In this document: one piece after another, positions 7,645 through 60,145 of the stretch
How the letters are laid out: each line of letters starts with the position of its first letter
How positions within the stretch are numbered: the stretch's first letter is position 1
IMG/VR virus record: IMGVR_UViG_3300019927_000008
Span: 2,888-66,887 of that record
Strand: one strand, 5' to 3'
Length of the DNA stretch: 64,000 bases
Source of the DNA: a virus
Position numbers and translations under genes: made by a program
Notes under the pieces: model-generated
The model's input: the letters and a program-made list of their open reading frames with translations, nothing else
The model's database searches: none
What the model was told of the DNA's origin: nothing

Positions 7645-8153
7645 TGAATCTGACAGAATTAATCGAGGTTCTTTCTGCTCGATTCGACTCCGATCTTTCA
7701 GCTCCATTTCGAACCGCCGGAGGTCCAGACGATCATCCGGTCCCCCTCGTCCTTCTCGAAGACTGGTCTACGACTGACCACAACTGGCAAAACAGTAATT
7801 TTGCCGGACAAGTAGTTGATCCCGAAGACGATACTGAAAAGCGGTATTTCCGCTTTTACTACACGATTCGGATTGAAGTGCTTGTCAAACATCACGACGA
7901 CGTGCAGGCTCACGTTCTGCTCGATCAACTTCGAAATACGCTGTTCGATCTGAAGCGCGATCCACTCTCGCTTCACAATGACGTGAACAGCGTGAAACCC
8001 GGAGGTTCAACGGGTATTAACCACAACTTCGTTGAATCTGACGAGACTGAACTTCGTCAGTCCTTCCGGATCACTTCTTTCCACGAAGTGAAAGACGACA
8101 GCTACGACACTCTCGAAGAGATTGTCAACGACTTCACCGTCAAGGAAATTTAA
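7644..8153 (+). CDS. Tail terminator
   Basis: Synteny just before the sheath gene. Confidence 0.5.
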   Translation: MNLTELIEVLSARFDSDLSAPFRTAGGPDDHPVPLVLLEDWSTTDHNWQNSNFAGQVVDPEDDTEKRYFRFYYTIRIEVLVKHHDDVQAHVLLDQLRNTLFDLKRDPLSLHNDVNSVKPGGSTGINHNFVESDETELRQSFRITSFHEVKDDSYDTLEEIVNDFTVKEI

Positions 8154-8156
8154 CAC

Positions 8157-9470
8157 ATGGTAAACAACTACGGCGACGAAACCGAACCCGGCATCATCAC
8201 AGAAGAGTCTTCCAGCAATTCCATCGAGACTTCGGGGACATCCCCGAACGACATCCTCATGGTCGGCCCTGCTGACCTCAACAACGCAAACAACCCCGCC
8301 GAAGAGGGCATGGTCTACGAGGTCGGTCGAGACACAACTGCGGAGTCTCGATTCGGTCCCCCGGAGACGAGCCTCATTACTACGGCAATTCTGGACCAAC
8401 TGCGAGAAGGCGCGGCTCCTGTCTTCGCGGTTGCTCCCCCGTCTACTGACGTTACAGGGGAAGATCACAGCGGAGAAACGACCACGACAATCGACCTTCA
8501 GAACGCTCCGGCTTCGGAGATCGAAGCGGACTACACGCTCACCCTTGACGGGACTGAGCTGACACCGATCTTCGTCGAGGGCGACGTTTCGACGAAGACT
8601 CCCGAAGCGGGTGAAGCCTACGTCAATCCTGTTCAGGCTCAAGTCGAGCTTCCGGAAAGTGCGGATACGGGGACTGGCCTCACGGCTGATTACACCCACT
8701 TCGACTACGCTTCGGCCTTCGACACCCTCGCCGGTAATCAGGAGGCCGCCGAAGCTTCGGACTTCCTGATCGGTCTTCAGGAGGAAGCGACGGTTCAGCA
8801 GGATGTTGTGGACACCGCGAAGGAGATGTCCACGGAGCAGAACTACACAATCGCTCTGGTCACTCCCGATGGTGGTCGGCTCGATGTGGACAGCTTCGAG
8901 AATCCCTACGACTCGTCCCGTGTTCAGGTAGAGTATCCGCCCCGGTACGAAGATCGTTCGTCTGCTCTGGCCGCCTACGCCGGAACGCGAGCAAGTCTCG
9001 GCCTGAATCGTGCGCCCATCAGTCAGCCGCTTCAAACTGACAAGCGCCTGTCTGTCTCGCTTTCGAAGAGCGAGCGTGGTTCGCTGATTCAGAAGAACGT
9101 GGTTCCGCTTGAGAACCGCACCGGCGGTGCTGTCATCAAGGACGATCCGACGACAGTCACCGACGAAAACACAGACGAGTCGAACATCAAGTACGGCTTC
9201 CAGCGACTCGCGCTTGACTACACCTACGAAGTGGCCGAAGAGAACGAACAGCCGTTCATCGGTCGTCTTCACGATCCCGCTGTTCGTAACGCTCTGGCTG
9301 ACCTCATCGGGGATCAGCTTACTGCCATGAAGCAGTCCGACATCATTGATGCGTTCAATGTTCGGGTCTTCGAAGAGTCGGCTACTCGGGCGCGGCTGGA
9401 ACTGGACCTCGATGCTCCGGACCCGCTCCGGTTCATCGAGAACAAGGTCCGGATTGGAGAGATCAACTAA
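8157..9470 (+). CDS. Tail sheath protein
   Basis: 437 aa; N-terminal PGIITEE, C-terminal sheath-like region (FIGR...VRNAL...LRFIENKV); followed by a tube gene. Confidence 0.85.
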   Translation: MVNNYGDETEPGIITEESSSNSIETSGTSPNDILMVGPADLNNANNPAEEGMVYEVGRDTTAESRFGPPETSLITTAILDQLREGAAPVFAVAPPSTDVTGEDHSGETTTTIDLQNAPASEIEADYTLTLDGTELTPIFVEGDVSTKTPEAGEAYVNPVQAQVELPESADTGTGLTADYTHFDYASAFDTLAGNQEAAEASDFLIGLQEEATVQQDVVDTAKEMSTEQNYTIALVTPDGGRLDVDSFENPYDSSRVQVEYPPRYEDRSSALAAYAGTRASLGLNRAPISQPLQTDKRLSVSLSKSERGSLIQKNVVPLENRTGGAVIKDDPTTVTDENTDESNIKYGFQRLALDYTYEVAEENEQPFIGRLHDPAVRNALADLIGDQLTAMKQSDIIDAFNVRVFEESATRARLELDLDAPDPLRFIENKVRIGEIN

Positions 9471-15735: not shown

Positions 15736-16104
15736 ATGCCAACTAAAAAAGTCGCAGTCGTTAGCGCGAACTGTGAAGCGACTGGACACCCCGGAGAGTG
15801 CCAAGAGCCGGTTCCCGGTGAAGTCCAAGACGCTGATGGAGATACTGACTTCACAGTCAATGGCGTTCCTGTAGCAGATCACTCTGATGTGATGCACTTC
15901 GATAGCCACGCGCACTCCTATTCCGGCGATCCTCCGAAGTGTGGAGGCTACACAGACCACGATCTCACTCCCGATCAGGACCACGGTTTCACGGTTAACG
16001 GCGAGCCTGTAATGCGAGAAGGTGACAGTACCACCGACCCAAGTAGCGGTGGAACAGCAGAAATTCTGGATTCTGGTGGTAGCGATCTCACAATCACAAC
16101 ATGA
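15736..16104 (+). CDS. PAAR-like spike tip protein
   Basis: Repeated VNGVPVA/VNGEPVMREGD segments with Cys/His metal ligands. Confidence 0.75.
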   Translation: MPTKKVAVVSANCEATGHPGECQEPVPGEVQDADGDTDFTVNGVPVADHSDVMHFDSHAHSYSGDPPKCGGYTDHDLTPDQDHGFTVNGEPVMREGDSTTDPSSGGTAEILDSGGSDLTITT

Positions 16105-52501: not shown

Positions 52502-52535
52502 GTAGCGTGGTTTTCGGTTCCCATTATAAGGACTT

Positions 52536-52598
52536 GGGCATCGTCAGGGCAACAGCGTCCATCTCGTTGCCAACACCGGGAAGCCCGGTGTTTCGCCC
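52536..52598 (-). ncRNA. Type II hammerhead ribozyme HHR1
   Basis: GGGC-GAAA-C[ACCGG/CCGGU]GUU^[GGCAAC/GUUGCC]-CUGACGA-U-GCCC; loop I GGAC can pair with tail GUCC. Confidence 0.9.
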
Positions 52599-52738
52599 GT
52601 CAGAAGTCTCGCGCCGTTCGCTCTTCGAGGTGATCCGGACAGAGTTTGTCTCCATCGTAGTCATGGAGATTGTCTGTCGCGGTGCAATGCTCACAGGTTT
52701 CCTCACTTTCATTCCCCCAAGGGGTTATTCCGGGGATT

Positions 52739-53068
52739 CTATCCATCATCTTGAACCACATCGGTTGCCGCTCGTTCAGCGGCGTCAGCAGGCTGTTCAG
52801 CGAGGGCCGCGTGTTCTTCCACCACGTCGATGAAGGTGTTGATGATCGTCTCCGAAGTCGCTCGCTTAGAGACGCTTGTGCCTTGCTTGGCGTGCGTCTC
52901 TTTGACGAGTCGGTCGAAGGCGAGGGAATCATTCTCACGAAGCTCCTGTGCTTCGTCAGCGAACGAAGCGCAGGCCGCCGCCGCTCGGAACGCCGCCGTG
53001 TTCCGAACCAGATCAGCCAGTTCGTCGTTGCTCATACTGCCGAGAGCTTGTGGGTTGTCGTCAGCCAT
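52739..53068 (-). CDS. Hypothetical protein
   Basis: First gene after the promoter and mini-tRNA; strong codon bias. Confidence 0.6.
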   Translation of the reverse strand: MADDNPQALGSMSNDELADLVRNTAAFRAAAACASFADEAQELRENDSLAFDRLVKETHAKQGTSVSKRATSETIINTFIDVVEEHAALAEQPADAAERAATDVVQDDG

Positions 53069-53080
53069 TGTAACCTCAAG

Positions 53081-53118
53081 GGGTAGCGGGGAGTCGAACC
53101 CCGCGCCGCCACTTACCC
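53081..53118 (-). ncRNA. Mini-tRNA (acceptor plus T arm) at transcript start
   Basis: GGGUA-AGUGGCGGC-GCGGGG-UUCGACU-CCCCGC-UACCC directly after the promoter at 53119-53149. Confidence 0.75.
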
Positions 53119-53139
53119 TAAGACTCTACTGCTTTAGAG

Positions 53140-53829
53140 TTAAGACTTACGGTCCCACAACACCTCCGGAAGAACTTCTCGATAGAAGGCTGTATGCCGA
53201 GCGTGTTCCTCTCGCTGGTAGTCGTAGATGGCCCATTGGATCAGGAATGGAGGCATCCCGAGAGGGTTCGGAATCTCACCGATTATCTCTTCGCAGGTTT
53301 CGAAGTAGTCTTTCGAAGAGGTGAAGTTGAGAGCGTTTCCGGTTGACTCTTCAAGACCTGCGAAGTTAGCGACGTTCGAATCAACGCAGATGTATTCATA
53401 GAGTCCGGACATCGCCAGCATGAACGAAGCCTTCCGATAAGAAACTCCTTTCAGCTCATCGACGACGACTTCGAGAAGTTCTTCGAAGCGACCTTCCCGA
53501 GCATGGCATCGAACTGCCTCTGCCAGTAAGTCCCACTCCGTGTTTTCGAAGCCGTTCGTGATCCACTCTGTCTTTTGGTTCCCGTAGACAGTCCCGGCGG
53601 CGGCCTTCCCGAGGTCGCTCCCCGAAGCCCACTCTGTAAAGGAACGCTCGTGACGTTCCAGTCCGGTTTGGATAGAGAAGACAGCGAAGACATAGCCGTT
53701 CCGTAGTATCTCTTCGGCCTTCTCTACGGTTCCGGAAAGGAGAAGTGTTCGGGTCTTTTCTGCGCGAGTCAACGACTGAACGTAATCTGGATGGTGGTCA
53801 CTCATCCAGCCTTCGAGTGTTTCATACAT
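53140..53829 (-). CDS. OGG-like HhH DNA glycosylase/AP lyase
   Basis: LKGVSYRKASF...ICVDSNV parallels the archaeal Ogg GxGxKEASHF...IIDRHI motif, with catalytic Lys and Asp. Confidence 0.55.
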   Translation of the reverse strand: MYETLEGWMSDHHPDYVQSLTRAEKTRTLLLSGTVEKAEEILRNGYVFAVFSIQTGLERHERSFTEWASGSDLGKAAAGTVYGNQKTEWITNGFENTEWDLLAEAVRCHAREGRFEELLEVVVDELKGVSYRKASFMLAMSGLYEYICVDSNVANFAGLEESTGNALNFTSSKDYFETCEEIIGEIPNPLGMPPFLIQWAIYDYQREEHARHTAFYREVLPEVLWDRKS

Positions 53830-54331: not shown

Positions 54332-54771
54332 GCTGGCCGAACGAAGGCGTCAGGATCGAGCATGGCACGTTCGATGATGAACTGTGCCGTCTCGTATCCC
54401 TTCCCTTCGGGAGCCTCAAACTCGGCAGAGTCGATCTCCCGAGTCGGTCCATCTTGGTAGTCGATCTCCGCCGCTTCCGGACTCTCCGTAAGTTCCGTGT
54501 TCGGAGAGTTTGACGGAGCGGAGTTTTGTACGAAGACGGAACTTCGTGTTTCGTAGAACAGCGAGAGGTGTGTAACGTCGCTCATTGGTCGTTCCTCCAC
54601 GTCATCGCTTCAGCGAAGCGGCCCATGATCGCGCCGAGGCTGGTCGTGTCGTACTGTTCTTGAATGTTCACGTCGCTGTAACTATAGCCGCCGGATGTAG
54701 ACTGCGTGTTTTTGTGTTCCATTAGGGATTTAGACTGCGTGTCACACTTTCCAACCCCCCTCAAGGGTTGA

Positions 54772-54838
54772 TGGCCTTCCTCTTCATGGGGAACGCGGCC
54801 AGTCGTTCCCGACGCCGGGAAGCCCGGCGTTTCGTCAT
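54772..54838 (-). ncRNA. Variant type II hammerhead ribozyme HHR2
   Basis: C-GAAA-C[GCCGG/CCGGC]GUC^[GGGAACG/CGUUCCC]-C(A)UGAAGA-G; loop UGGCC pairs with tail GGCCA; directly after the promoter at 54838-54868. Confidence 0.65.
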
Positions 54839-54870
54839 TAAGATCGAAGCCCGTCGCTCCGAGTCTTAGC

Positions 54871-56034
54871 CTACTGCGAGGTGGCTTCCTCCAGACGTTC
54901 TTCGGCGTCGTTGATCCGGCTCCGAGTTTCCTGCGGGATCGGTGCGCCGTTCGCCGCGTTCTGGATGTCCTGACGGCGGCGGAAGAAGGCCCGAAGGTCG
55001 TCGTAGACATCTCGGGGAGCGACCTGTGCCTGCCGAAGGCCACGCTCCTTGGCGACCTGTCGGACGGCGGCTTCCACCGAAGGAAGCTCGCTGTAGCTCC
55101 GGTACACCTCTTCGAGAAGGTCCGGGTCCACCTCGAAGACGCCTTCGAACTGCTCCTGATCGGTGAAGACCGGCTCCGTGATGTAGCTGAAGAACCGCAT
55201 CAGCATCGCCAGCTCGTTCACCGAGCAATGGCAGTACGGGTTGAAGAGAAGCCCGTCAGCGAAGTCCGGCTCGACGTTGAACGCCGACCGAATGTCGTGC
55301 TTGTCGTCGGAGTGGGAGTGCTGAAGGCCACACTCATCGACCGGACACTCGAAGGATCGAACCGAAGAAGAACCACCACCGATCATGGACTGAGCGTCCT
55401 GAAGAACGCCCATCACTTCGCCGTCCACGTCGGAGTCCATGTCGGACATGAACTGTTCGAGGGTGTTACTCATGCTCTCACTTCGACCCTCATCGAGCGT
55501 GCTGTGGTTCCCGAGGCTCCACATCCGAACTTCGTAGCTCTCTTCGTCGTCTTCAGTCGCGGTCTGTTCCTCGTCGTTGCCGTCGCCGTTCTGCATGAAG
55601 TCGTACATGGTGGTGTTGTCTTCGTCGTCGTCGGTTTCTGCACTTTCCGTCTCGTCGTCGCTGAAGAGGACGGGTTCGATCTCGGGGTCTTCGTCGGTTG
55701 CCTCACTTTCCGACTCGTCGCCTTCGAACAGTTCGGGGTTGATCTCTACGACTTCGTAGTCGTTGAAGAGGTCCCGAGAGTTTCTGACCGAGGCGAAGTA
55801 GTGAGCTTTCTCTTCGTCGTCGTAGACACTATCATTGTCTATCGCTTCTTGAACGTCACCAGTTTCCACGTTGACGATTGCGAACTTCGTTTCACTACTC
55901 CGTTCTTCTACGTGGTAGGAACCATCTCGGACGATGGATCGAGTCATCCGAGACGCCCTACCCTTTGCATCACCTTTGTCGTCGTAGGTTTGGTACTCTG
56001 TACCGTCTTCGCCAACTACTACGTATTCCGTCAT
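54871..56034 (-). CDS. Hypothetical acidic protein with C/H metal-binding cluster
   Basis: CPVDECGLQH and CHC motifs; follows a mini-tRNA leader. Confidence 0.6.
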   Translation of the reverse strand: MTEYVVVGEDGTEYQTYDDKGDAKGRASRMTRSIVRDGSYHVEERSSETKFAIVNVETGDVQEAIDNDSVYDDEEKAHYFASVRNSRDLFNDYEVVEINPELFEGDESESEATDEDPEIEPVLFSDDETESAETDDDEDNTTMYDFMQNGDGNDEEQTATEDDEESYEVRMWSLGNHSTLDEGRSESMSNTLEQFMSDMDSDVDGEVMGVLQDAQSMIGGGSSSVRSFECPVDECGLQHSHSDDKHDIRSAFNVEPDFADGLLFNPYCHCSVNELAMLMRFFSYITEPVFTDQEQFEGVFEVDPDLLEEVYRSYSELPSVEAAVRQVAKERGLRQAQVAPRDVYDDLRAFFRRRQDIQNAANGAPIPQETRSRINDAEERLEEATSQ

Positions 56035-59856: not shown

Positions 59857-60053
59857 TTTCGTAGAGGGGGGTAACGTCGATTGCTTTCACGCCATCCATT
59901 CCTTCGAACCGCTCATCGGGGTGTTCAAAAGTGACACTCCAATGGGGATCGAACGCCGGTGATTGCTTACTCCAATCAGGATTATCCGGAACGACCTGAT
60001 AGACGTAGGCAACTGGTTCTTTGTCTTTCATTCGAGATTAGTCCCTAAGTCAT

Positions 60054-60114
60054 GGGCATCATCAGGGGAAGGGCGACTAACTCCCTCCCAACAGGGACGA
60101 TCCCTGTTTCACCC
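60054..60114 (-). ncRNA. Type II hammerhead ribozyme HHR3
   Basis: GGGU-GAAA-C[AGGGA/UCCCU]GUU^[GGGAGGG/CCUUCCC]-CUGAUGA-U-GCCC; loop AGUC pairs with tail GACU; starts right after the promoter at 60115-60145. Confidence 0.9.
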
Positions 60115-60145
60115 TAAGACTCTACTCCTAAGAACTTGAGTCTTT
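60115..60145 (-). promoter_or_regulatory. Bipartite viral promoter
   Basis: AAAGACT-N17-AGTCTTA. Confidence 0.7.

Follow-up and report, generated by a model that had tools for sequence, protein, structure and literature searches.

A candidate hammerhead ribozyme with an adenosine inserted between C3 and U4 in the leader of a hypersaline virus gene

An RNA element on the minus strand of a viral genome, here called HHR2, is, to judge from its sequence, a relative of the hammerhead ribozyme that shares common descent with bona fide hammerheads. Its core is interrupted by one adenosine between C3 and U4. It is probably a working variant of the kind first described in haloviruses in 2011 and not a decayed copy, since the closest relative found carries the same insertion, with core and pseudoknot unchanged and stems altered by compensatory changes.

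The analysed DNA (64,000 nucleotides, hereafter the window) comes from an IMG/VR virus record of 71.8 kb (positions 2,888 to 66,887 of IMGVR_UViG_3300019927_000008). Its DNA matches among cultured phages were restricted to Halorubrum and Haloarcula tailed viruses of Hafunaviridae, which supports a hypersaline-virus origin. Genes from about 22 kb to 64 kb of the window are on the minus strand. HHR2 is found there between the gene of protein P0001 and an ORF of 46 aa, both on the same strand (Table 1). About 4.5 kb beyond this locus, a gene for a Rad3-like helicase is found; this arrangement resembles the early-gene arm of HF2. One reading frame (54582..55043) is open through HHR2 and was considered as coding, but this was rejected because the indels separating HHR2 from its counterpart in the closest relative, contig L004, break the frame. 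As they are not multiples of three, the stretch is taken to be non-coding despite its open frame.

Architecture and detection of HHR2

HHR2 displays a series of features characteristic of type II hammerheads. The nucleotides GAAA (54833-54830) directly follow AUGAC, so that G12, A13 and A14 are in place, as are the A15.1-U16.1 pair and an NUH triplet (GUC). Stems I and III each end in a loop and stem II is open, forming the three-way junction of this type. Loop I can pair with the 3' tail in a pseudoknot, and the same columns covary across 11 relatives. The role of such a pseudoknot is to bring stems I and II into alignment for catalysis. The strand C3 U4 G5 A6 N7 G8 A9 is not contiguous, an A being placed between C3 and U4, and no other register of stem I removes this A54787.

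The original prediction, made from the letters of the window, had described a GUC site, a 7-bp stem I, a 5-bp pseudoknot UGGCC/GGCCA and a core reading C-A-UGAAGA. All were located on the minus strand, the core at 54788-54781, and the position of C17 of the GUC triplet agrees with the cut that had been predicted. Likewise, stem III had been called nearly identical to that of the paralogue HHR1, and the 13-mer CCGGGCTTCCCGG is indeed exactly common to both (52576-52588 in HHR1), the observed number of matches being reached by none of 100 shuffles.

Table 1. Features of the HHR2 locus and of hammerheads compared with it. Positions are those of the window unless another record is named; R1 is the covariance model described in the text.
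Feature	Coordinates	Strand	Remarks
Upstream gene P0001	54871..56034	-	387 aa, phrog_30610; orthology anchor
Promoter-like palindrome TAAGACTC-N14-GATCTTA	54839..54868	-	30 bp, directly abuts the ribozyme; putative promoter
HHR2 hammerhead	54838-54772	-	Predicted cut 54811/54810
3' strand of open stem II, AUGAC	54834..54838	-	C11.1 = 54834
Core G12 A13 A14	54831..54833	-	Invariant in 11/11 aligned hammerheads
Stem III hairpin, A15.1 to U16.1	54812..54830	-	8 bp, loop CUU; U16.1 = 54812
C17 of GUC triplet	54811	-	Predicted scissile bond 54811/54810
Stem I hairpin	54789..54810	-	7 bp, GGGAACG/CGUUCCC, 54810-54804 with 54795-54789; family-wide covariation
Loop I	54803-54796	-	Holds pseudoknot strand UGGCC (54801-54797)
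Core C3-A-U4 G5 A6 A7 G8 A9	54781..54788	-	Extra A at 54787
5' strand of stem II, GGAA	54777..54780	-	G10.1 = 54780
3' pseudoknot strand GGCCA	54772..54776	-	5 bp with loop I UGGCC
13-nt block ACCCUUGAGGGGG	54756..54768	-	Identical in L004
Downstream ORF	54582..54722	-	46 aa, conserved ..LGAIMGRF.. motif; gene behind this leader in all relatives
HHR1	52528..52599	-	Near-consensus paralogue; RF02276 31.3 bits; R1 82.8 bits, E 1.5e-25
HHR3	60046..60115	-	Near-consensus paralogue directly after palindrome copy; R1 76 bits, E 3.1e-23
L004 orthologue of HHR2			R1 36 bits, E 1.7e-09
HF2 HHphage			R1 27.7 bits, E 1.3e-06
22-nt hairpin carrier	L157:1501-1593	-	IMGVR_UViG_3300010222_000002, 36606-36698
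22-nt hairpin carrier	L152:1501-1589	-	IMGVR_UViG_3300010232_000001, 15814-15902

HHR1, HHR3 and the canonical orthologues described below resemble HHR2 in belonging to the same clade and in occupying a leader position after a palindromic promoter-like motif. They differ from it in sequence and spacing: their motif is CUGAYGA-U-GCCC, stem II has 4 bp and a linker of 2 nt leads to the pseudoknot, whereas in HHR2 the pseudoknot strand comes immediately after C-A-UGAAGA-GGAA. The sole Watson-Crick pair of its stem II is G10.1-C11.1 (54780 with 54834), beyond which GGAA opposite UGAC could form G.A, A.G and A-U pairs. The nearest-neighbour energy of this stem was +1.5 kcal/mol versus -8.0 kcal/mol in the L004 orthologue, where stem II is GCC(G)/(C)GGC (3-4 bp) and the minimum free energy (MFE) structure is a textbook three-way junction. 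A stem II of about one pair, as originally predicted, is thus a property of the window copy but not a general trait of the variant. Tandem G.A/A.G pairs were considered as a stand-in for stem II and set aside, as no stable helix is expected at +1.5 kcal/mol; they are conceivable at most.

Folded in isolation, the 67-mer of HHR2 has an MFE of -27.7 kcal/mol in a competing fold, compared with -26.5 kcal/mol for stems III and I with the pseudoknot left out. Owing to the pseudoknot duplex (5 bp, GC), estimated at about -7.5 kcal/mol, the balance would tip towards the hammerhead fold. An alternative fold pairing GGCUUCC with GGAAGCC was examined as a possible switch and dropped because L004 is unable to form this pairing. 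The minimal stem II is not disqualifying in itself, since fast cleavage is known for a pseudoknotted type II hammerhead whose stem II has one pair, an active precedent (Perreault et al. 2011, PMC3088659, Fig. 4).

The original prediction had also anticipated that standard models would miss this element. Rfam reported no hammerhead at HHR2 at the gathering score, and none at E<=10 either, whether the whole window or 300 nt was searched. HHR2 shares with the pseudoknotted type II model (RF02276) GAAA, the A15.1-U16.1 pair, the GUC cut site and the loop I/3'-tail pseudoknot, but the CUGANGA consensus of this model is broken by the inserted A, and no match was obtained at the thresholds tried. RF02276 found the HF2 HHphage ribozyme at 41.1 bits but neither HHR2 nor its L004 orthologue; HHR1 was found once the search space was small, with a score below the gathering threshold of 37 bits. 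Rfam likewise missed the C-UU-UGACGA and 22-nt hairpin variants described below.

Six canonical hammerheads from related haloviruses, none of them from the window or carrying an insertion, served to build a covariance model (R1). It reported HHR2 at 54771-54838(-) with 41.4 bits (E 2.4e-11, 264 kb searched), and in its alignment the A falls between C3 and U4 as an insert. Among 11 aligned hammerheads, 99.2% of the cells were paired and 12 pairs were double-changed, pseudoknot columns included, which was equalled by none of 500 shuffles. The E-value of HHR2, together with the occurrence of canonical hammerheads at the orthologous slot, argues for common descent.

The R1 search of the window gave no hammerhead copy beyond HHR1, HHR2 and HHR3. 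Weak R1 matches in HSTV-2 (8523-8590 and 8673-8760) and at 842-888 of the window were judged to be due to chance, as they lack GAAA and CUGANGA. A loose pattern scan pointed to a hammerhead-like layout at 7989-8064(+) of the window, with 5-bp stems and a core AUC-UGACGA; it is probably a chance occurrence too, since R1 reports none there.

Attempts to extend the group by pattern were largely unproductive. Scanning viral contigs with the exact pattern of the stem III that HHR1 and HHR2 share gave nothing outside the window's own record, and a viral-contig scan for GAAAC..GTCGG..CCCATGAAGAG found nothing. After the stem filter, a looser metagenome scan, with at least 120 places, left none of 120 fetched loci hammerhead-like. 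When the 81-nt element was compared with cultured phages by blastn, only chance matches came up, and P0001 as the single query protein led to no related loci. One distant locus was obtained by a genome-contig scan, in a MAG labelled Halomonas sp.

The leader in related haloviruses

Orthologous loci were anchored by a P0001-family protein upstream and protein P0033 downstream. The slot between the P0001-family gene and the ORF with the ..LGAIMGRF.. motif was occupied by a canonical CUGAYGA hammerhead in contigs L005, L007, L009, L134, L135, L141, L143 and L145, stem I of L009 being nearly identical to that of HHR2. In L006:2455-2524(+), which is the same as L133:3302-3371(+), the hammerhead of this slot reads CUGACG-UGCCC; either A9 is missing, or it has changed to U and the usual extra U is absent. 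In HSTV-2 (L002:3618-3660(-)) and in L136:3320-3385(+), a similar palindrome is followed in this slot by a tRNA-like acceptor/T-arm element. From these comparisons, a ribozyme and a tRNA mimic seem able to replace one another as modules for leader processing. The alternation of two unrelated RNA-processing signals in one slot argues that the function of the slot is an RNA cut.

Several observations on neighbouring elements can be added. The same kind of tRNA-like element occurs in HF2 (L003:2900-2945(+)) after HrrHF2_005, the first annotated gene, without homology of this gene to P0001 being implied. In L004, an orthologue of HHR1 (L004:3520-3620(+)) directly follows the palindrome which in the window precedes a mini-tRNA at 53119; about 0.5 kb with this mini-tRNA and small ORFs is present in the window (52528-53149(-)) and absent in L004. 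Most of the other clade hammerheads that were read have a GGGA or GGGG run within about 2-20 nt after the pseudoknot, which might pair with the GCCC/UCCC strand freed after cleavage.

L004, from a JGI hypersaline metagenome, is the closest relative, its upstream protein being 72% identical to P0001. The original prediction had proposed to look for the same insertion in homologues, and it is present here: the L004 core is C-A-UGAAGA, an 8-mer identical to that of HHR2. In the neighbouring gene, the window and L004 agree at 75% of the four-fold degenerate sites, which sets the neutral divergence at about 25%. Against this background, none of the 14 core and 10 pseudoknot bases has changed, and the chance of 24 unchanged bases at the neutral rate is 0.75^24, or about 0.001 by our own calculation. 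Stem I displays three compensatory double changes (G-C to A-U, A-U to G-C and C-G to U-A) and stem III one (G-C to A-U); in loop I, the two bases not engaged in the pseudoknot have both changed. Unchanged core and pseudoknot, combined with compensatory stem changes, point to a selected variant and not to a decaying copy, and it thus appears that the fold and the core bases have been kept by selection since the insertion of the A; this argument consists of one pairwise comparison, the exact +A variant having been found in two lineages. The view of HHR2 as a natural core variant, which had been put forward together with the reservation that a copy both inactive and lacking conservation would rather be decayed, is therefore strengthened, the core being fully conserved in L004.

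Insertions in this part of the core are not limited to the +A variant. In the same slot, L147:1004-1075(+) and L146:167-238(+) read C-UU-UGACGA, with two extra U in an otherwise canonical architecture. In the upstream-protein tree, the window and L004 form one clade (support 96/97) and L147 falls within the other clade, beside a canonical copy, so that the +UU and +A insertions are considered independent. Additionally, the promoter-adjacent type II hammerheads of genomes G001 and G004 carry a 22-nt hairpin (CGAAGAC..GUCG) exactly between U4 and G5. The stems of this hairpin covary between the two carriers, and an exact-pattern scan of viral contigs found the module in those two only. The copy of G003 (L156) has identical stem I and loop I with a canonical CUGACGA core. 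The +A, +UU and 22-nt hairpin insertions indicate that the segment from C3 to G5 is an insertion hot spot in halovirus hammerheads.

Such insertions have precedents in halophilic viruses. Short insertions next to C3 and stem I have been reported only for hammerheads of saltern viromes and of HF1/HF2 (Perreault et al. 2011, PMC3088659). The HHmeta and HHphage ribozymes of that report share with HHR2 an origin in hypersaline viruses; their otherwise intact cores carry extra nucleotides where stem I meets C3, which the insertion of HHR2 may resemble. HHmeta has two extra bases (G2a C2b) 5' of C3, with C3 and U4 adjacent, whereas HHR2 has a single A 3' of C3; according to the HHmeta primer sequences (supplement), both insertions fall in the same 3-nt neighbourhood, on either side of C3. 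HHmeta was nearly inactive at 15 mM Mg2+ and cleaved at about 0.13 per min at 300 mM, useful rates needing at least 75 mM, and removal of the insert restored fast cleavage (PMC3088659). For the original suggestion that HHR2 is perhaps slow or salt-tuned, such saltern and halovirus ribozymes with inserts beside C3 provide a direct experimental precedent. HHphage (HF1/HF2; ncRNA HrrHF2_135) is a type II hammerhead with a loop I/3'-tail pseudoknot directly abutting a 3-bp stem II and no U after A9, as in the L004 orthologue. In HF2 it has UGU in place of C3, whereas HHR2 keeps C3, followed by A. Like HHR2, it lies just upstream of an early gene, but this is the helicase gene and hence a different locus. 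Its cut site is no more than 3 nt away from a 5' end that was mapped in infected cells (PMC3088659). A C3/U4 insertion is not among the variants of that study (A6a, U13a, 2a/2b and U3-A8) or of its supplements, and nothing closer was found in the literature.

Palindrome and transcript start

A motif scan showed that the palindrome TAAGACTC..GAGTCTTA is repeated through the genome; the spacer of the copy at HHR2 is one base shorter than usual, and the copy of the L004 orthologue is 31 bp long. HHR2 begins at the first base after the palindrome, and the distance from palindrome to hammerhead among orthologues ranges from 0 to 13 nt.

One start site has been mapped for this motif type, T-4384 of HF2 (PMC8707807). 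It is located 10 nt beyond an AAAGACT..CTCTTT palindrome, 39 nt from the first base of the latter, and inside a tRNA-like element (L003:4345-4410(+)), between the 5' acceptor strand and the T arm. Transferred to HHR2, this spacing would place the RNA start near 54829, after GAAA. With a start about 10 nt past the palindrome, the promoter's own transcript would be devoid of G12-A14 and only read-through RNA could cleave. The original statement that HHR2 starts at the promoter consequently holds for its adjacency to the palindrome but is called into question by T-4384 as regards the RNA start. If the T-4384 spacing is general, HHR2, HHR3 and the mini-tRNAs at 53119 and 56121 would all be incomplete in the promoter's own transcripts.

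Competing explanations and significance

On balance, we favour the interpretation of HHR2 as a working but ion-demanding hammerhead, whose cleavage at 54811/54810 would trim, or split off, the mRNA of the small genes that follow. It would be a type II hammerhead by descent, residing in a slot that mostly holds a canonical pseudoknotted type II hammerhead, and the A would have been inserted between C3 and U4 in the lineage of the window virus and L004. Self-cutting would take place 3' of C54811 in the Mg2+- and K+-rich haloarchaeal cytoplasm, probably more slowly, or with a higher demand for Mg2+, than in HHR1 and HHR3. With stem II nearly lost, the 5-bp GC pseudoknot would keep stems I and II positioned. 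By the cut, the mRNA of the small downstream genes would be detached either from upstream read-through RNA or from its own leader, and its new 5' end would bear a hydroxyl and begin with the hairpin of stem I.

Few RNA motifs are as tightly conserved as the hammerhead core, in which the C3-G8 pair and the uridine turn are regarded as essential. A C3/U4 insertion disturbs this very region, and this speaks against a working HHR2, as do the modelled MFE of the isolated 67-mer, which is not the hammerhead fold, the single Watson-Crick pair of stem II and, by analogy, the near inactivity of HHmeta at 15 mM Mg2+ (PMC3088659). The main competing view, which we regard as rather unlikely, is that the insertion abolished catalysis and that HHR2 persists as a structured leader, its two hairpins and pseudoknot being kept for some other role, for instance to stabilise the 5' end, bind a protein or space the promoter. 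The compensatory changes fall in hairpins, as expected of such a leader, stem II has almost vanished in the window, and core insertions near C3 were expected to destabilise the site and to be strongly deleterious (PMC3088659, section 9). However, single-stranded GAAA, C17 and C-A-UGAAGA would have no role in a plain hairpin leader, and yet they are 100% conserved in the face of a neutral divergence of 25%; the pseudoknot that would align the stems for catalysis is intact as well. Neutral drift of a recently inactivated copy, or a chance look-alike, would agree with the silence of Rfam and with the degradation of stem II relative to L004. This is highly improbable in view of the R1 E-value of 2.4e-11, the conserved orthologous position, and the fact that 0 of 24 core and pseudoknot bases changed while four pairs underwent compensatory change since the split from L004. 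Recent recombination that would have shared the HHR2 segment with L004 is made less likely by 9 changed stem bases.

Another explanation can be based on regulation. The insertion and the weak stem II of the window may have been selected to tie cleavage to Mg2+/K+ or to a factor, so that early-mRNA processing would follow the salt state of the host. The very high Mg2+ requirement established for HHmeta (at least 75 mM) and the salt-responsive control proposed by its authors are in line with such a scheme (PMC3088659, section 9 and discussion). So is the repeated occurrence of C3-G5 insertions among these viruses, namely +A, +UU, the 22-nt hairpin and the variant of HF2. As the consensus core is retained by HHR1 and HHR3, which belong to the same genome, the variant of HHR2 is locus-specific. 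However, the alternative pairing GGCUUCC/GGAAGCC of the window MFE is not conserved in L004, and high cytoplasmic salt may merely relax constraint, with no regulatory meaning; we therefore consider this conditional use unlikely. The same doubt applies to the broader proposal, suggested by sequence comparison, that the inserts between C3 and G5 (+A, +UU in L146/L147, UG(U) in HF1/HF2 and the 22-nt hairpin) are adaptive and tie cutting to cytoplasmic Mg2+/K+ or to an insert-bound factor, which appears improbable at present. If true, adaptive inserts would give the virus salt-responsive control over early-gene mRNA processing.

The practical impact of a working HHR2 would be modest, since the phenomenon was first shown in 2011. 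If HHR2 cleaves, the accepted consensus would nevertheless be too narrow for hypersaline hosts, and models of the Rfam type would miss real ribozymes there. The consensus paralogue and the +A, +UU and +hairpin variants would then represent a natural series for the ionic rescue of a perturbed active site, and a further question would be the regulatory use of this rescue by these viruses.
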